The notes below the pieces were generated by a model. That model made no database searches. It saw only the letters and a list, made by a program, of their open reading frames with translations, and was not told the origin of the DNA. A DNA stretch of 63,421 nucleotides, counting the filler, from Craspedostauros australis (lineage: Eukaryota), in assembly GCA_030167865.1 (NCBI GenBank). It is 5 parts of 5 records of this genome, joined end to end, with 100 filler letters (N's around TTAATTAATTAA, not from the genome) between each part and the next. Parts side by side here need not be neighbours in the genome. Positions count along the whole stretch, not along the records: positions 28,000 to 50,369 come from JALAGF010002769.1; 4 more parts are not named here. One strand, written 5' to 3'. Below, in pieces: positions 5,000 to 59,932 of the stretch. Each line of letters begins with the position of its first letter. The stretch's first letter is position 1. A program made the translations under genes and the position numbers.

Positions 5000-7900
5000 C
5001 TACACATTAGCGGATTGAGTGACGTTGTCGGTATCATTGGTGTTGTCAGGTGCATTCGATTGCCCGCTCTTCCGGCTGGACTTGCTGCTCCTGCTGGATC
5101 GGACCGGGACGTCATTCTCCCATCGGCCGTCATGGCGCACGGAGCCATCGTGTCTCGTCTCGCGGCCACGACCGTGCGCCTTGCCGTGATGCCACTCGCC
5201 TTGGTAGAGCCTGCCATCCGCCCATCGGCACTGTGGTGAAGGAAAGACGGAAGCAACCGAGTGGCAGATTCATCAATGATACGTTTTGTTTGAAGAGAGG
5301 CATTGTGCACAAGGACAATGAGCGATGGGGAGATGGCACGATGAGAAAGGATGAAGGAGATGGTACGATCAGACGTGGATGATACCACACAAGGAATGTT
5401 GGCACAGTGTCGCGTGAGTGCTTGGATGAAGGCATCGCAGCTCAGACAAACGTACAAGTGCGCTCTCTGGATTGGTATGACGCCACACAAACAGAAAAAG
5501 GGAAACAAAGAAACTTCGCCGAAGACACCCAAAACTGCTTGAAAAGTCGCAGACGTGAATGCAAGTGCAGAGCGCGAGCATCGCGGTCCGCACAGGTATT
5601 GTTGTCGGTATCCATCCTGTCCCGTTCCATTCCATCACGCATAATGCTCAGATGCCACGGATGTCGCAAATGGCCAGCCATAATGCTCACTGTCGGCAGG
5701 CAGCGGAGAAGAGTAGAGCATTGGCATGTGCGGTACATGCAGTACTCGCGCGCTCGTCTGATCAACAACTCACCTCTCCAAACCCATGGTACTTTCCCTT
5801 CTGCCATTCTCCTGTGTACTTGCTGCCATCTCGGAAGGTGTACGAGCCTTGTCCATGACGGAGTCCCTTGTGGAATTCCCCTTCGTACTTGGCTCCGTCA
5901 GGCCATGTGTATTTGCCTTCACCTTGGCGTTGGTCCATGTGGAATTGACCGGCGTAGACTGAGTGTGTGATATGGTGCAATGTGATTGATGCAGCGTTGC
6001 GTTGGGTCGTGGGTCAGGCGGTGGCGTATCATGGTCGCAGAAGGTCAGGATTCGTCAACAGCAGAGGGAGATGGAATCGAATTGGATGTGCACGTTTTTG
6101 TGCCATGGCGGACATGCAGAATGTCATTCGAACAGAGACGAGAGGTCCCAAACATCAGTTCAGTCGTGAATTGTGTTGTTGCCCGTGCCCGTGCCAGTGT
6201 CGTTGGCAAAGATCGCCACGCGGATGTGAACAAATGAGAGAGAGAGGGAGAGAGCAGTGTGTCGCAGCGGGTGAGCGAACCTTGCGACGCCAACACAAGA
6301 GGAGAGCGAAGATCACAGATACTGACCGACCAGTGATGCTTCACGATTCAATTTGTGATGTCAAAGATTCCAAAGATCTGCAACCAAACAATGTCACGAT
6401 TCAACTCCCATCACAAAATCGAGGCATCGGTCTCTGTGACAGTTCTTGTCCGCTCCAACCTCATTCCACAAACATCCCCAAGTGCCACAAGCGCACCAAG
6501 CGTGCACCAAGCATCCCAGGCTCCATCCATACCATCAGCGCCACCCACATAATCGCATGGAGTAGCACATGTCACATCGCATCACACCGCTTCATATCGC
6601 TCGATACAAATTGCAGGCGAGCGATGCAAGCAATAGAGCAGTCGTCGTACTCGTACTCCACCAATGTCACGTACCTCTCCCGTCCTTCCATTTGTACACG
6701 CCGTGGCCATGGCGCTGATCCTGGTGGTATTCACCCTGGAAGACGTCACCGTTGGAGAACATGGCGGATCCTTGCCCGTGCCAGTGGCCATGCTGCCAGT
6801 TGCCGGAGTACACTCTGCCATCGGAGTAGCACATGGTGCCCTTGCCCTGCGGCAGCTTCGTGCTCGTCAAGATTTGTCCATCAAACTCTCCCTGATCGCC
6901 GTACGGGTCGACGATCCACTTCTTCTTTGCCATTTCAACTGCGGTGGATGACGAAGAAGACGCAGAAGATATCCCCACCGGCGCTAATGACGATGATGTT
7001 GATGACGACGAGGCGCTGACCGCATCGTTATTTGGGAATGCTTGGGAGCGCGGGATCGCGTCCGATGGCGGATCCATGGCGCCCGTGCCAGGACCTGCGC
7101 GGTTGGGGTTGGATTGGGCGTTGCTGGACAGGGGCATGTTGGAGGCGGATGCCATACTCACGTTGCTCTGCTGGCTTGCGTCTGAGGCTTGGCGCAAGTT
7201 GAGCTTGTCCGGCCTTTCGCCTGCAGACAGCAACGACGAAGCCGTCTGCTGCTGCTGCTGCTGCTGAGAGTGGTTCTGGGGTGCGGCGCCCGTCGCGTGC
7301 GTGTTCCTGATGACCATCGTTTCCTGAGATGGCATCGAAAGGCTGGGACCACCGGAGTCGCTCCACAGCAGATGGCTGCTGCCATCGACGGACTCGGCTT
7401 GAGACACGCTCGACATCAGTTGGATACCATTCGGGTTGGAGGCATACATTTGCTGCTGCTGCATGGACATCATCGACGCTTGGCCACCCGCCATGGATGT
7501 CTGCATCAGTTGATGCAACACGGAGTCCACTCGATTTCGGAGGTTGTCGATTTGCTCCTGCCGGACGTTGGAACTGGCGGATGCGGAGTCGCTGTCAGGA
7601 TCATTTGACGCATTTCCCGTTGCTGCGGAGGGCGTGCTGTTCCTGGCATCTATCTGACCGCGGGCGTTGCCAAGTTTGGCATTGCTCGGCGATGATGCTG
7701 ACGGTAGCGGATCGCCTTGCGAGGACGGCATGTTTGAAGTGATGGGAAGGATCCGGTGGCCCTGTGACTGTCTCCGAAAGCGATGGTGGGTGTTCTGGAG
7801 GTGCAGACTTCGATCTTCGTCGTGCTGCTGCTGCTGCTGCTGACGACGATGCTGATGGCGGCTGTCACGTTGCGGACGCTGATGGCCGTTGTGTGCGACA

Positions 7901-27899: not shown

Positions 27900-27999
27900 N
27901 NNNNNNNNNNNNNNNNNNNNNNNNNNNNNNNNNNNNNNNNNNNTTAATTAATTAANNNNNNNNNNNNNNNNNNNNNNNNNNNNNNNNNNNNNNNNNNNN
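27900..27999. other. Artificial assembly linker (N44-TTAATTAATTAA-N44)
   Basis: Six-frame-stop linker flanked by Ns; the same linker occurs four times in the window. Confidence 0.97.
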
Positions 28000-47004: not shown

Positions 47005-48407
47005 ATGAGATCGATTGCTTCCAACCTGGCCACGTTGGTGGCTCCATTGGTGATTCCGCTGATGGTCACAATCCCATCGATGGATGCATTCATCATTGTC
47101 ACGTCACCAATGGTCGTGCATCAATCAAGCCATCAATCAAGCTATCACAGACACGATGATCAACCCAGAAGCATCATCATCAACAACAACTGTGCGACGA
47201 GCACAGCGATGAATGCTGCCAAGGCAACGGCAGATGAAAATGGATGGGATATTCCAGATCCATCATCGCTGCCACCGCTGTATCAATCATCATTGAATAG
47301 CAATGCCAATGGAAATGCCAATAACAAGGGCAAGGGCAAAAGTCGCAGCAAACCCATCAAGCAACTTCCCAATGGAGGCACCATCACCATGGTGGGATCG
47401 GGACCAGGCGATCCCAACCTCCTCACGGTCTCGGCGTACAAGCTGCTCACCGAGGCAACTTCCAACACGCTCGTCATCTGCGATCGACTGGTCAGCAAGG
47501 AGATCCTGGATCTGATTTCGGATGATGCAGAGCAGAAGATCGCGCGGAAATTGCCAGGATGTGCGAATCTGGCGCAGAATGAGATCTACAAGTGGGCGCA
47601 TGAAGGGTTGCAGAAGGGAATGGAAGTGATCCGATTGAAGATCGGTGATCCGTTCGTGTTTGGCCGTGGTGGCGAAGAGGTGTTGCAATTCCGAGACTAC
47701 GGCATCGAACCCAGCGTCATTCCGGTGAGTGTTCACATGTGCGAGCATGATATCACAAGGCCTCGCCACTTGTATTCCAGTTGGTCGAGCGCGGTTGGAC
47801 TGCCATTCATTCACTCACCATCCATCAATCTCATCAATGCTCACATTATCGTTCACATCAACGTTCACATCAACGTTCTCCTTTGTGCTGTTCCATACCA
47901 CCAATATTCACATTCCACGATCGCTCTCCATCGCAGGGCGTTTCGGCAGCATTCTCGGCACCATTGCTGGGTTCCATCCCTGTCACCCACCGTGGTGTCG
48001 CCAACCAGGTCGTCATGTGCACCGGATACGGACGGGAAGGAACCTCGCCTGATCTCATCCAATACCATCCAGAACAGACCATCGTCTTCCTCATGGCCGT
48101 GGGCCGTCTCACAGAGCTTTCGGAACGGCTGCAGCGACTCGCGGGATACCCAGCAGACACAGCAGTCGGAATCATCGAACGAGCCGGCTGTCCCGAGCAA
48201 CGAACGGTGGTTGGTGATCTGAGCAACATCGGTGCTATCGCCAAGGAATACAATGTGCAGGCACCGTCGACGATCGTGGTTGGGAACGTGGTTCGGGTGT
48301 TGTTGGCAGACGACGATGAGATGGAAGGCGGCGAAGCGAGCGTGCTGCAAGGCCTCATCTCGACCTGCAATGATACCGCGGCAGTATCTCCGGCGTTCGC
48401 AGCTTGA
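47005..48407 (+). CDS. UPM1: Uroporphyrinogen-III C-methyltransferase (SUMT; CobA/CysG-A/UPM1 type), predicted plastid-targeted; 2 exons
   Basis: Exon 47005-47724, intron 47725-47936 (GTGAGT..GCAG), exon 47937-48407. Motifs MVGSGPGDPNLLT, DRLVS, VIRLKIGDPFVFGRGGEE, IP|GVSAA, IPVTHRGVA, TIVFLMAV and APSTIVVGNVV. A hydrophobic signal ends SMDA-F, matching the ASAFAP-type motif. Confidence 0.95.
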
Positions 48408-48950
48408 GTTGTGTTTGCGAGACGCATTGGTGCGACCTATGCCATACTTGCACGAACACAAGTGTAGTACTCGTATATGCGAGTAGAGTACGAGCCACAT
48501 GGGTACATGCTGACAGTTTTGCATTCCGTCATCATCATCGCATGGCACAGCGTAGAGAGTCGGCTGATTCCCCGCAGAAGTAGTGTACCATGCCATACAA
48601 CTACGATACGAATAAATAGAGACGAACGTTCGCATGACATGGTGCGGAACATGAATTGCAACTGCCTATGGCAAGTACGAGTATGAAACCAGCCATCCGT
48701 TCATTCATACGCAAGAGATGACCACTCGTCGACAACACTATTGCGACTCGAAGAAGGTCTTCGTGTAGTAGAGAACGGTGATTCATTCGGTTACTTCACT
48801 TTACGACTATGTATGGTACGAGTATGGTACTGATCCCACTCTTGTGACATCCAGAGGGGTTCAGCAAGTGTACGTGTATCACACCTCATCTCGTCTCATC
48901 TCAGTTCGAGTTCTAATAGGGACTACCACGACATATTCATAGTGTCTTGC

Positions 48951-50135
48951 TCACAACTTACACTCCTCGCACTCCTCCAACCCTTCGAACCAATTCACCA
49001 GGTACGTGTTGTAGATGAAGCATCCCAGACAGAAACCGACGCTCGATTCCAGCCAGGTGGCGACGTTGCATGTCAGCACCACGCTCGCGATCAAAGGCTT
49101 GTACAAGTCCTTGTCCATCTCCTTGCGGAGCACGAACAACGTCAAGCATGTGCATGCCAACGTGAGACCGATCAACCAAGCAAAGCGCTTTGGTCTGGCC
49201 GGTTTCCAGTACGGTCCCTCGGGATGGAGCAGGATGGAGAGAAGGGTGCCAGCGATGCCGATCGGTGCCAGCGGCGTCAGACCGAACACCATGCTGCTCA
49301 GGAACTCCCATGCCACCAGCGGGAACAGCACCTGGACGTAGATCTTGTCGTTCCAGAAGAATACGTTCATCAGGGCGATCCACGTGATGACGTTGAGGAG
49401 ACCAGCTCGGGCGCGCACCGCGTGCTCGTCCATGTAGATCTCATCCGGCTTGTCGGGGTTGACGTTGCTGTGTCCGAGGTCCCACCAGTTGCCGTACTTG
49501 CCACGGATGATGAATCTGTCCATGTTGGACATGGGCTGTGCCTTGTCCATGCCGGTGTGACCGTGAACGCCAGCTCCACCAGCAGCATCCTTGTCCCCCC
49601 ATGGGAAGTTGTCGCATTGGATGTCGTTGGGCAGGAGGTGACGAGCGTTGGTCACCACTGGCACGCTCTTCAGCAGGTCATCCGAGCTGACGTTGGCGTC
49701 CATGCCAAACTCAGGTCCCACCTGATTCCGGAGGATCATCAGGGCAGGGATGGTCTTAAGGCCGAACAGATCTCTCATGGTCGCGGTCTTCTCCAGGTCG
49801 TACGGCATCACGTCGATCCCGGCCACCTTGTTGCAACTTTGGCGGAAGTTGTCATGGCCGTCGCGGTCGTTGCTGACGAAGATGACCTTGCATCGCTTGT
49901 GTGGTTGGAGGGTCTTGAGTGCGGCAGACACGACGGTGGGTGCGAATTCCTTGCAGTGGGGACAGTAGTTGGCACCGATGAATACGGCGATGTAGTCGTA
50001 GAGGTCTGTGTCGAATGCCTGTTGGGTTGGGATGAGAGTGATGGGACATTCCTCAGCATGGCACTCACTTTGATTTTGCTGGATGGATGGACCAAAGAGG
50101 GCGATGCGCCAGTCCTGGTTGTTGTCCTCGCTCAT
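48951..50135 (-). CDS. Nucleoredoxin/tryparedoxin-type thioredoxin domain fused to a DUF4395-like multi-pass membrane domain
   Basis: 394-aa intronless ORF. N-terminal half: GANYCPHCKEF, VIFVSND, IPALMIL, FPW. C-terminal half: MDEHAVRARAG, PKRFAWLIG, LESSVGFCLGCFIY, about four hydrophobic segments and terminal ECEECKL. Confidence 0.85.
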   Translation of the reverse strand: MSEDNNQDWRIALFGPSIQQNQSECHAEECPITLIPTQQAFDTDLYDYIAVFIGANYCPHCKEFAPTVVSAALKTLQPHKRCKVIFVSNDRDGHDNFRQSCNKVAGIDVMPYDLEKTATMRDLFGLKTIPALMILRNQVGPEFGMDANVSSDDLLKSVPVVTNARHLLPNDIQCDNFPWGDKDAAGGAGVHGHTGMDKAQPMSNMDRFIIRGKYGNWWDLGHSNVNPDKPDEIYMDEHAVRARAGLLNVITWIALMNVFFWNDKIYVQVLFPLVAWEFLSSMVFGLTPLAPIGIAGTLLSILLHPEGPYWKPARPKRFAWLIGLTLACTCLTLFVLRKEMDKDLYKPLIASVVLTCNVATWLESSVGFCLGCFIYNTYLVNWFEGLEECEECKL

Positions 50136-50369
50136 GTTTGCGTGGTCGATTGTTTGGTTTGGTTGGGCTGTGTGTGTGTGTATTGATGTGTTTGCGTTTG
50201 CAGTTGTGCTGGGGTTGTTGTTTTTATGAGAACGATGATGATCATGGACACAGAGAGGGTATGAACATTGCTGAATGGAAGAGATCTGACATGAACTATC
50301 GCGAAAGTGCCAACGATTGGCCTATCGCGGTACAAATCAACAAACATAAACACACGTGAGCGCGAGTAG

Positions 50370-50469
50370 NNNNNNNNNNNNNNNNNNNNNNNNNNNNNNN
50401 NNNNNNNNNNNNNTTAATTAATTAANNNNNNNNNNNNNNNNNNNNNNNNNNNNNNNNNNNNNNNNNNNN
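50370..50469. other. Artificial assembly linker
   Basis: N44-TTAATTAATTAA-N44. Confidence 0.97.
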
Positions 50470-52183: not shown

Positions 52184-52283
52184 NNNNNNNNNNNNNNNNN
52201 NNNNNNNNNNNNNNNNNNNNNNNNNNNTTAATTAATTAANNNNNNNNNNNNNNNNNNNNNNNNNNNNNNNNNNNNNNNNNNNN
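52184..52283. other. Artificial assembly linker
   Basis: N-TTAATTAATTAA-N. Confidence 0.95.
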
Positions 52284-59832: not shown

Positions 59833-59932
59833 NNNNNNNNNNNNNNNNNNNNNNNNNNNNNNNNNNNNNNNNNNNNTTAATTAATTAANNNNNNNNNNNN
59901 NNNNNNNNNNNNNNNNNNNNNNNNNNNNNNNN
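59833..59932. other. Artificial assembly linker
   Basis: N44-TTAATTAATTAA-N44. Confidence 0.97.

Follow-up and report, generated by a model that had tools for sequence, protein, structure and literature searches.

A thioredoxin–DUF4395 fusion protein of Craspedostauros australis, a candidate single-chain thiol-redox membrane module

In bacterial VKOR–Trx fusions a CxxC-bearing membrane domain of four helices exchanges electrons with a thioredoxin-fold domain of the same chain, and in the DsbD/CcdA/ScsB proteins a cytosolic thioredoxin feeds the cysteines of the membrane protein. In YeeE/YedE (TsuA) with YeeD (TsuB), and likewise in MerT, MerC and MerF, a small membrane protein with cysteines hands a thiophilic cargo on to a thiol partner in the cytosol, to which it is sometimes fused. 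Among proteins of the thioredoxin type, WCGPC and WCPPC are the usual reducing motifs, the latter being the typical active site of tryparedoxins and nucleoredoxins.

A mycobacterial operon is also relevant here. According to bioRxiv 10.1101/834739, the operon of Ms5788A, the 159-amino-acid hydrophobic protein Ms5788, cysA2 and Ms5790 is de-repressed at low cysteine, as determined experimentally, and its poly-cysteine leader, represented in M. tuberculosis by the Rv0815A leader, is a cysteine attenuator. Judged by its architecture, size and hydrophobicity, Ms5788 is probably a DUF4395 protein. A connection between this family (PF14340) and sulfur metabolism was proposed in 2014 (Lyubetsky et al., Comput Biol Chem 49:7, cited in PMC4833913), and a full-text literature search for DUF4395 returned passing mentions, one title on sulfur metabolism and one leader-peptide study.

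The gene and its two domains

The gene described here lies in a stretch of 63,421 nucleotides of C. australis DNA, filler included (assembly GCA_030167865.1; below, the window), in the part taken from JALAGF010002769.1. A preliminary description of this DNA had claimed that a single intronless reading frame joins a thioredoxin domain to DUF4395, and such a frame is present on the minus strand at 48951..50135, where it runs without interruption from an ATG start to a TGA stop, encodes 394 amino acids with both Pfam domains in one frame and, after the preceding stop, has no in-frame start further upstream. Codon arithmetic placed the three cysteine pairs exactly where they had been reported (CPHC at 49964-49953, CLGC at 49031-49020 and CEEC at 48971-48960). 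Orthologues align with the window protein end to end with 97–100% coverage, and P0002, P0027, P0072, P0083 and P0139, MMETSP-derived sequences from transcriptome assemblies, each hold both domains in one ORF, in support of a single transcript. An RNA run (X1, of presumed kind) gave one contig of 534 bases, spanning 48800-49309 only, which does not bear on transcript structure. A long ORF on the plus strand (48942-50186) was rejected as a gene, being the antisense mirror of the real minus-strand gene. The features of the locus are as follows.

48951..50135, minus strand: complete, intronless coding sequence of 394 amino acids plus TGA stop (48951-48953), from the ORF call
49722..49997, minus strand: Thioredoxin_8 domain (tryparedoxin/nucleoredoxin-like), residues 47-138, from Pfam, PDB sequence search and Foldseek
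49953..49964, minus strand: active-site CPHC, C58-C61, at the N-terminus of helix 59-76, from sequence and AF2
49746..49748, minus strand: cis-Pro loop of the thioredoxin fold, P130 (TIP), proline in 114 of 114 non-gap rows
49545..49589, minus strand: low-confidence linker, residues 183-197, pLDDT below 50, length differing among orthologues
49428..49544, minus strand: conserved juxtamembrane segment, residues 198-236, with near-invariant and invariant columns
49002..49433, minus strand: DUF4395, residues 235-378, four long helices and a short helix (291-303), from Pfam and AF2
49176..49193, minus strand: P-K-R-F-A-W motif, residues 315-320, in the predicted basic cytosolic loop before TM3, from the family alignment
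49146..49148, minus strand: C330, in TM3, kept in 101 of 108 rows
49068..49070, minus strand: C356, in TM4, five residues before W361-L-E363, kept in 98 of 105 rows
49020..49031, minus strand: CLGC, C369-C372, the CxGC that never varies in the family and from which helix 370-382 starts, from alignments and AF2
48960..48971, minus strand: CEEC near the C-terminus, C389-C392, beyond the Pfam model, from the orthologue rows

Both Pfam matches predicted in the preliminary description were found. The N-terminal domain matches Thioredoxin_8 (PF13905) over residues 47-138 with an E-value of 2.2e-13 and 50.8 bits (cut-off 27), a PDB sequence search matched it to tryparedoxins and 2lus, and Foldseek aligned it with the tryparedoxin chain 1o81_B (E 2.9e-6, TM-score on target 0.82); NCBIfam profiles gave only thioredoxin-type matches to the window protein, all below threshold. 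Instead of WCPPC, the domain carries YCPHC. Conservation was counted over the 115 eukaryote-type rows of alignment A2, using the non-gap rows of each column: the active-site motif is CPHC in 47 rows, CPFC in 44, CPSC in four, CPYC in two, others in eight and a gap in ten, with C58 kept in 102/103 and C61 in 101/105 rows. As CPHC and CPFC are not usual reducing motifs, they count against a reductant role of this domain. Conserved residues of the juxtamembrane segment are R207, G215, W217, G221, H222 and Y234-M-D-E-H, and the closest bacterial proteins have a counterpart of it, PWW..G.

The membrane part matches DUF4395 over residues 235-378 with an E-value of 1.5e-22 and 80.7 bits (cut-off 24.5), covering positions 1-128 of the 130-position profile. 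Its AF2 model (pLDDT 94.5, pTM 0.88) has long helices at 237-261, 264-284, 314-335 and 342-366, a short one at 291-303 and a further helix, 370-382, which starts at CxGC; these four long predicted helices and the hydropathy agree with the earlier estimate of about four transmembrane segments. The motifs PxRFA and LE...GxCxGC, named in the preliminary description, proved to be real and family-wide in alignments of 35 and 72 sequences. The second of them, W-L-E...G-x-C-x-G-C, corresponds to residues 361-372; K316, F318, A319 and the C, G and C of CxGC are invariant in the 35-sequence alignment, and the two cysteines of CxGC are the only invariant columns in the 72-sequence alignment. Structural searches with the membrane domain gave no Foldseek match in the PDB at E 1e-3 or better and, in a wide VIA-align search, only generic four-helix bundles with Z ≤10.4, below the level that the tool takes as meaningful for helical bundles; these results do not imply a novel fold. 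A PDB sequence search matched only the thioredoxin part and nothing in the DUF4395 part, and ESM Atlas gave no usable match to residues 228-394 once PF14340 clusters were excluded.

All three cysteine pairs, together with C330 and C356, are conserved in 93% or more of some 105 orthologues, in keeping with their proposed importance: C369 and C372 are each kept in 103/104 rows of alignment A2, C389 in 104/104 and C392 in 104/105. For the further membrane cysteines the earlier proposal holds in part, as C330 and C356 are conserved but C328, the first cysteine of ‘ACTC’, is not (threonine in 60 rows). C330 is common only to the eukaryote-type proteins and the closest bacterial subfamily; at the position of C356 the consensus of the broad family alignment is likewise cysteine. 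The second pair is CxxC in the closest bacterial subfamily. Most canonical bacterial members have C-x4-C there (CPGGxC, CxxGxC), and in a few proteins the pair is missing.

In agreement with the claimed absence of a signal peptide, there is no hydrophobic segment before residue 242 (no 19-residue window above 1.2 on the Kyte–Doolittle scale), and because the N-terminus lacks a signal peptide the thioredoxin domain is placed in the cytosol. The mean number of lysines plus arginines is 2.0 at the start of TM1 and 3.8 in the loop 304-317; the other two loops have 0.8 and 1.4. A four-helix N-in/C-in topology is predicted, with all fused partner domains at cytosolic termini, and it would put the thioredoxin domain on the same, cytosolic, membrane face as CLGC and CEEC, as a single-chain thiol relay had presupposed. 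Complex prediction between residues 1-182 and 198-394, run without a supplied alignment, returned a score of 0.02 and a mark of 0.34, from which no verdict follows.

Fusion partners, phylogeny and bacterial neighbours

The thioredoxin–DUF4395 fusion is not unique to the window, as it occurs in 110 of 120 homologues among the matches listed, from many diatoms and one dinoflagellate. Among the 80 DUF4395 family representatives scanned, an N-terminal Thioredoxin_8 domain is present in seven, a C-terminal glutaredoxin in seven, Aminotran_5 in two, and Pyr_redox_2 and an N-terminal HMBD in one each; the named sources of fusions are diatoms, Breviolum, Tetraselmis, Heterosigma and Cantina, the glutaredoxin being joined to DUF4395 in Tetraselmis and Heterosigma. 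In the Cantina protein (P0303) the Pyr_redox part proved to be thioredoxin reductase of the high-Mr type (2zz0_A, E 3e-165), and the Aminotran_5 partner is a SufS-like cysteine desulfurase (8d8s_A, E 5e-26), whose PDB relatives include chains named selenocysteine lyase. These algal fusions of DUF4395 to glutaredoxin, to high-Mr thioredoxin reductase and to SufS-like cysteine desulfurase are new here, and they make the Rosetta-stone argument, by which the fusion marks DUF4395 as a thioredoxin partner, stronger than was originally claimed. The thioredoxin-reductase fusion keeps CxGC, is missing the second cysteine pair and ends in ‘...TSC’, as would a selenoprotein read up to its UGA (Sec reading).

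In a quick tree the DUF4395 domains fused to Thioredoxin_8 all fall in one clade (SH-aLRT 99), which groups beside the glutaredoxin and desulfurase fusions, the whole group being sister to the bacterial CxxC subfamily. A separate matter is the C-terminal C-K-L of the window protein, which was considered as a PTS1-like peroxisomal signal and rejected because both the glutaredoxin and the desulfurase fusions retain the string CxECK[LM] at an internal position.

Bacterial DUF4395 genes were found in 52 of the 151 Actinomycetota genomes searched. The preliminary description had placed a thioredoxin and a sulfurtransferase gene beside them and a Cys-rich leader upstream, and both are borne out. At 29 actinobacterial loci a thioredoxin adjoins DUF4395 in six, a rhodanese in five and one or both in nine; DUF1416 was seen at one locus, CysE- plus CysK-like genes at one, an ArsR-type HTH_20 at six and Rrf2 at one (L113), all of these counts being lower bounds of uncertain quality because the ORF calling was crude and overlooked even the DUF4395 gene at 8/29 loci. 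A leader ending in a poly-Cys run stands directly upstream of DUF4395 in three of 16 actinobacterial loci examined (L089, L090 and L091), in each with the order poly-Cys leader, DUF4395 and rhodanese, followed in L090 by DUF1416. A frame-shifted reading of the L089 leader ends in ‘...VAVERSRAL’, which resembles the out-of-frame mutant of bioRxiv 10.1101/834739.

A locus search with alignment A4 reached the closest bacterial subfamily only, where DsrE_2 is nearby in 4/80 loci and rhodanese in one, most neighbours being unrelated housekeeping genes. The Mycobacterium copies of this subfamily lie between RNase PH and Ham1, the Enterovibrio copies beside T6SS genes, and TPMT genes adjoin DUF4395 in L039 and L046. 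A Cys-less protein of about 77 amino acids, which adjoins DUF4395 in 12 gammaproteobacterial loci, had no match in Pfam up to an E-value of 0.05. Neither metal-efflux ATPase nor mer genes were seen among the bacterial neighbours scanned.

Proposed function and alternative readings

DUF4395 is thus recurrently fused to, or found next to, thiol-redox and sulfur-transfer enzymes, a single clade of it having joined four thiol or sulfur enzymes in independent fusions, and a redox partnership between thioredoxin and DUF4395 is well supported. The comparison of algae and bacteria suggests that the family is a client of cellular thiol-reducing systems and part of sulfur supply. For the window gene itself we see roughly even chances that it encodes a single-chain, cytosol-facing thiol-redox module whose membrane domain handles reactive sulfur. 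A tryparedoxin-like, cytosolic thioredoxin domain would be tethered by a flexible linker to a four-helix DUF4395 domain with both termini in the cytosol; CxGC would sit at the cytosolic end of TM4 and at a helix N-terminus, like a classical redox CxxC, and a mobile C-terminal CxxC would be able to reach the CPHC of the thioredoxin domain. That domain could then act as a dedicated reductant or thiol-disulfide exchanger, regenerating the cysteines of the membrane domain at each turnover, with the C-terminal pair probably shuttling between the two. We infer that these cysteines are redox active, with such a direction of electron flow and such a shuttle, and that the substrate is reactive sulfur: the membrane domain would most likely handle sulfane sulfur, persulfide or thiosulfate-derived species, in the service of sulfur or cysteine supply, and the cytosolic thiol system would release or resolve the sulfur bound on it. 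Several points count against this sulfur module. The neighbours in the closest bacterial subfamily are for the most part unrelated housekeeping genes, and only 9/29 actinobacterial loci have a thioredoxin or rhodanese. There are hints of metal handling (HMBD, ArsR-type HTH_20, Rrf2 and TPMT), four helices are few for a transporter, and, sulfate being abundant in sea water, sulfur scavenging is not obviously needed in diatoms.

Taken more widely, DUF4395 may tentatively be seen as an unrecognised class of membrane thiol protein, in which cysteines would covalently hand over a chalcogen (sulfane sulfur, thiosulfate-derived sulfur or, in algae, selenium) and be reset by cytosolic thioredoxin, glutaredoxin or thioredoxin reductase, wired in at least three separate ways in algae, with the diatom protein as the thioredoxin-wired form; we hold this to be possible, if rather less than probable.

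An electron relay across the membrane, of the DsbD/CcdA/VKOR kind, appears unlikely. In such a relay electrons would run from thioredoxin through CxxC/CxGC and C356/C330, and the acceptor would lie in a lumen, in the cell exterior or within the bilayer (e.g. quinone); two more conserved cysteines do lie within TM3 and TM4, C330 close to the predicted outer end of TM3, alongside the conserved buried acidic residues E277 and E363. However, the 13 residues from C356 to C369 amount by arithmetic to approx. 19 Å along a helix, C330 has the restricted distribution described above, no extracytoplasmic client is encoded nearby, and such a relay would not account for the association with cysteine desulfurase and rhodanese or for the cysteine attenuator. 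The VKOR- or DsbD-like relay that the preliminary description had drawn is not supported: the redox pairs are all predicted to be cytosolic, Pfam profiles of DsbD, VKOR and DsbB gave no match at E up to 1, and neither VKOR nor DsbD appeared among the fold matches listed. The chain of three CxxC pairs that it also proposed would be plausible.

We likewise consider it improbable that DUF4395 binds or passes on, from cysteine to cysteine in the manner of MerT, MerC and MerF, a metal or metalloid with affinity for thiols (Cu(I), Hg, Cd, Zn or a species of selenium or tellurium) which thioredoxin, glutaredoxin or thioredoxin reductase reduces or releases, as for example in reductive selenite uptake by selenium-requiring algae. 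The one family member with an N-terminal HMBD heavy-metal-binding domain is in favour of this, as are the thiopurine/selenium-type methyltransferase genes at L039 and L046, the selenocysteine lyase relatives of the SufS-like partner and the selenoprotein-like ‘...TSC’ end of the thioredoxin-reductase fusion. ArsR-type HTH_20 genes at six of the 29 actinobacterial loci point the same way, but ArsR-family regulators also sense persulfides, the poly-Cys attenuator links the mycobacterial operon to cysteine supply and not to metals, and the scanned neighbours included neither mer genes nor a metal-efflux ATPase.

Very unlikely, finally, is a Zn(Cys)4 or Fe–S site, with a structural role or as a redox switch, in which CxGC and CxxC clamp the C-terminal tail to TM4. 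Partners of the thioredoxin type would then do no more than maintain or regulate this site, and the real activity of the membrane domain would be unrelated to thiol chemistry. Such a site would suit the rubredoxin-like spacing and acidic flanks of the two pairs, a second pair that is CxxC in some members, C-x4-C in others and absent from a few, as in accessory metal sites, and the Rrf2-type regulator at L113, but a catalytic dithiol fits better than a four-cysteine metal site because the thioredoxin-reductase fusion keeps CxGC without the second pair, and it would be unusual for a single domain to need four different thiol or sulfur enzymes for its maintenance.

The family is conserved across diatoms and other algae and common in the Actinomycetota searched (52/151 genomes), and the set of fusions makes this domain of unknown function testable, since likely reactive residues, a membrane face and electron donors can be named; the Ms5788 operon of M. 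smegmatis offers a tractable assay system. If a thiol-driven sulfur or selenium relay is indeed at work, it would be a new component of mycobacterial cysteine and sulfur supply and of trace-element and sulfur handling in marine phytoplankton.

Comparison with described systems

TsuA and the Mer proteins differ from the window protein in that their partner is TusA-like or MerA, not thioredoxin, and no relation in sequence or fold was detected; the Sulf_transp profile gave no Pfam match in the window protein at E up to 1. DsbD, CcdA and ScsB have six to eight helices and send electrons to periplasmic domains, whereas the window protein has four helices and no DsbD profile match. The VKOR–Trx fusions are alike in joining a four-helix, CxxC-bearing membrane domain to a thioredoxin-fold domain, but in the window protein the thioredoxin domain is N-terminal and cytosolic, the cysteine pairs are predicted to face the cytosol and VKOR gave no Pfam match at E up to 1, nor were there VKOR chains among the fold matches listed for the membrane domain (Foldseek and VIA-align), and nothing was found that points to a quinone.

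Tryparedoxins, nucleoredoxins and plasmoredoxin resemble the window thioredoxin domain most closely, being its top sequence and structure matches and sharing a CxxC that heads a helix as well as a conserved cis-Pro loop, although tryparedoxin and nucleoredoxin have WCPPC where the window family has YCP[HF]C, and the window domain is tethered to a membrane domain. Thioredoxin-glutathione reductase offers a parallel to Cantina P0303, itself a relative of the window protein: 4la1_A and 2x8c_A align to the reductase part, and DUF4395 occupies the N-terminal position of the glutaredoxin, although the acceptor is in one case a soluble glutaredoxin and in the other a membrane domain. This shared position suggests, by analogy, that DUF4395 is a fused electron acceptor in P0303.

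Ms5788 and the other bacterial DUF4395 proteins with cysteine leaders are stand-alone, with thioredoxin encoded by a separate neighbouring gene, unlike in the window. They are of the canonical type, whose second pair is C-x4-C, and in the quick tree that branch does not fall within the clade that holds the window domain. Nevertheless, the Ms5788 operon has the same order of leader, DUF4395 and rhodanese as L089-L091, and its membrane domain appears to be of the same Pfam family as that of the window protein.

Gene structure and distribution of the thioredoxin–DUF4395 protein

The single intronless frame joining a thioredoxin to a DUF4395 domain, as proposed in the preliminary description, was borne out: one open frame of 394 codons runs from ATG to TGA, with matches above the curated Pfam cut-offs to Thioredoxin_8 (PF13905; residues 47–138, E 2.2e-13) and DUF4395 (PF14340; residues 235–378, E 1.5e-22, profile positions 1–128 of 130). 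CPHC and CLGC lie exactly where they had been placed, and the terminal CEEC is present.

48951–50135, minus strand: thioredoxin–DUF4395 gene
49964–49953, minus strand: CPHC (C58–C61)
49031–49020, minus strand: CLGC (C369–C372)
48971–48960, minus strand: CEEC (C389–C392)
47005–48222, plus strand: ORF matching Pfam TP_methylase positions 1–115
47781–48407, plus strand: ORF matching Pfam TP_methylase positions 116–211

As had been stated, a signal peptide is absent, because the N-terminus (MSEDNNQDW...) is acidic and the first 241 residues contain no hydrophobic stretch. The start site is common to the orthologues, which in the alignment keep a DWR motif a few residues past the methionine. The neighbouring, convergent gene encodes a tetrapyrrole (uroporphyrin-III type) methylase split over two overlapping frames (47005–48407, plus strand), as would result from an intron or a frameshift. 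Methylases of this class serve the formation of the precursor of siroheme, used by sulfite reductase; in a eukaryote, such adjacency is weak evidence. Paired 44-base N runs flanking the string TTAATTAATTAA at 27900–27999, 50370–50469, 52184–52283 and 59833–59932 have the appearance of scaffold-gap linkers; because one of them is only ~235 bases upstream of the start codon, the promoter region is incomplete in the assembly.

The window is eukaryotic, the top BLASTP homologue (66%) coming from a Staurosira transcriptome, and among the matches listed the close homologues with names are all diatoms. Both Pfam domains occur together in 110 of the 120 homologues listed (148 found), PF14340 alone in six (237–282 aa) and PF13905 alone in four, these single-domain proteins looking like truncated gene models. 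Named sources of the fusion are Staurosira, Seminavis, Nitzschia, Cylindrotheca, Skeletonema, Cyclotella, Pseudo-nitzschia and Amphora; the dinoflagellate Breviolum minutum belongs to a more distant homologue cluster. As several transcriptome orthologues marked complete hold both domains, these are on one transcript in relatives and not on two. Public databases already hold these proteins under automatic names (e.g. 'nucleoredoxin-like', 'DUF4395 domain-containing protein'), so the gene in the window counts as an ordinary member of a family conserved among diatoms.

Conserved cysteines and predicted topology

All six cysteines of CPHC, CLGC and CEEC were kept in at least 101 rows of the homologue alignment, in which the thioredoxin active site reads CPHC in 47 rows and CPFC in 44. 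The further membrane cysteines that had been noted stood in part: C330 and C356 are conserved, but C328, the first cysteine of ACTC, is not.

Residue conservation in the 115 eukaryote-type rows of the alignment of Thioredoxin_8–DUF4395 homologues (numbering of the window's protein; rows in which the residue is kept)
C58: 102/103
C61: 101/105
P130 (cis-Pro loop): 114/114
R241: 115/115
E277: 109/113
K316: 111/113
C330: 101/108
C356: 98/105
E363: 105/107
C369: 103/104
C372: 103/104
C389: 104/104
C392: 104/105

Across the family (alignments of 35 and 72 sequences), only CxGC is invariant, with PKRFAW and WLE almost so, in agreement with the motifs PxRFA and LE...GxCxGC named in the preliminary description, and the consensus has a cysteine five residues ahead of WLE. 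The second cysteine pair, which falls outside the Pfam DUF4395 model, reads CxxC in the clade of the window's protein and in the closest bacterial subfamily; most canonical bacterial proteins have C-x4-C instead (e.g. CPGGxC), and a few members lack the pair. The string E-C-x-E-C-K-[LM] (residues 387–394, and in the relatives P0147, P0150 and P0181) forms the very C-terminus in diatoms and the dinoflagellate; in glutaredoxin or desulfurase fusions it precedes a linker and the partner domain and is still kept. Being kept in both positions, it is part of a functional motif, and a C-terminal sorting signal can be ruled out.

The full-length AF2 model (pLDDT 90, pTM 0.73) is confident except for the linker 183–197, and the membrane domain alone gave pLDDT 94.5 and pTM 0.88. 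The approximately four transmembrane helices anticipated appear as four long helices (237–261, 264–284, 314–335 and 342–366), with a short helix at 291–303; TM4 is broken at G367-F-C369, and a further helix (370–382) starts at CxGC. By PDB sequence and Foldseek matches the thioredoxin part resembles tryparedoxins and plasmoredoxin; for the membrane part Foldseek gave no significant match in the PDB, and VIA-align returned only generic helical bundles. Basic residues are concentrated at the start of TM1 and in the loop 304–317, with fewer in the two short loops, and this distribution, together with the signal-less N-terminal thioredoxin domain, argues for an N-in, C-in topology. In this prediction CPHC, CxGC and the C-terminal CxxC, whose sharing of one membrane face had been posed as a check, are all cytosolic; C356 falls in the middle of the membrane and C330 nearer its far side.

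Fusion partners and bacterial relatives

A full HMMER search with residues 228–394 yielded 205 cluster representatives at E ≤ 1e-3; of its 140 newly returned proteins, 80 were scanned with Pfam, those omitted being mainly short fragments. DUF4395 was without a partner domain in 63 of the 80; seven carried an N-terminal Thioredoxin_8, seven a C-terminal glutaredoxin (one of them also with Aminotran_5), two Aminotran_5, one Pyr_redox_2 and one HMBD. Tetraselmis and Heterosigma are the sources of the glutaredoxin fusions, and in P0181 a single chain unites DUF4395 with glutaredoxin and a SufS-like cysteine desulfurase. In P0303 from Cantina marsupialis (full-length, 716 aa), a high-Mr thioredoxin reductase (human TrxR1, E 3e-165) follows DUF4395. 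This protein ends in '...KKTSC', presumably as expected of a selenocysteine-containing reductase of this type if the ORF is cut at the UGA codon. In two actinobacterial proteins (loci L101 and L106) the C-terminal part matched thioredoxin-like profiles weakly (E 2e-3 and 7e-4). A quick maximum-likelihood tree, built from 90 domains, placed all Trx_8-fused domains and six shorter proteins in one clade (SH-aLRT 99), which joined the glutaredoxin and desulfurase fusions (SH-aLRT 88); the sister group was the closest bacterial subfamily (its own clade SH-aLRT 99), with canonical bacterial proteins outside.

DUF4395 was found in 52 of 151 Actinomycetota genomes, including four unpublished ones with a match each (G006, G023, G153 and G125), in only 3 of 251 Pseudomonadota and, among 14 control genomes, in Thermus thermophilus, Corynebacterium glutamicum and Lactococcus lactis. 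The thioredoxin and sulfurtransferase neighbours that had been expected were recovered at some of 29 published actinobacterial loci (1.5-kb flanks, crude ORF calls): thioredoxin at six (L081, L090, L091, L113, L114 and L115) and rhodanese at five (L086, L089, L090, L091 and L092). DUF1416 adjoins at one (L090), CysE- and CysK-like genes at one (L081), HTH_20 regulators at six, Rrf2 at one and LmeA at six. At L099, L100, L104 and L108 unusually long HTH_20 (ArsR-type) proteins (353–399 aa) lie directly upstream, the remainder of which matched no Pfam family at E 1e-6. The Cys-rich leader was likewise seen, as a short ORF directly upstream that closes with an unbroken run of six or seven cysteines, at three of 16 loci examined (L089, L090 and L091). 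This arrangement matches that of the published M. smegmatis operon, whose expression goes up under cysteine scarcity (bioRxiv 10.1101/834739).

One Mycobacterium genome (G001, the genome of L058) has three paralogues (L081, L086 and L087) in different settings: with thioredoxin, CysE-like and CysK-like genes; with rhodanese and LmeA; and between RNase PH and Ham1, this last copy being nearest to the eukaryotic clade. Mycobacterium copies of the closest subfamily share the last setting. Conserved context is otherwise scarce in that subfamily (80 loci kept of 327 confirmed; 62 representative neighbours of 896 ORFs scanned with Pfam), with DsrE_2 at four loci, TPMT at two, and rhodanese and AhpC/TSA at one each. 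At 12 gammaproteobacterial loci (among L001–L013 and L021) a Cys-less protein of ~77 aa, often in two tandem copies, lies immediately beside DUF4395 (e.g. L001:6544-6780; L002:6545-6781 and 6954-7184), in some followed by DsrE_2; it matched no Pfam family at E up to 0.05.

A proposed thiol-resetting role

These data fit best with DUF4395 cysteines that would alternate between an oxidized and a reduced state (or a sulfur-loaded and a free one) and be reset by cytosolic thiol systems, because one membrane domain has repeatedly and independently been joined to thioredoxin, glutaredoxin and thioredoxin reductase, and because all three partners are predicted to be cytosolic, beside the invariant CxGC at a helix N-terminus. 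The desulfurase fusions, the rhodanese, DUF1416, CysE/CysK and DsrE_2 neighbours and the cysteine attenuator point to reactive sulfur as the cargo. A 2014 paper, by its title, ties PF14340 to sulfur metabolism. That DUF4395 instead handles metal or selenium is unlikely, a trans-membrane relay appears equally improbable, and a four-Cys metal site is the least probable of these readings. In full-text literature, mostly outside the subscription journals, we found neither a functional study of DUF4395 nor any reference to its eukaryotic fusions; the novelty lies in the comparison, through which a conserved diatom family acquires a testable mechanism.

In the proposed cycle of oxidation and resetting, the C-terminal cysteine pair would normally shuttle between the partner and CxGC. 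The absence of this pair from the Cantina protein fits such a role, since the reductase's own mobile tail could do the same job, and DUF4395 here occupies the place of the glutaredoxin domain of thioredoxin-glutathione reductase.
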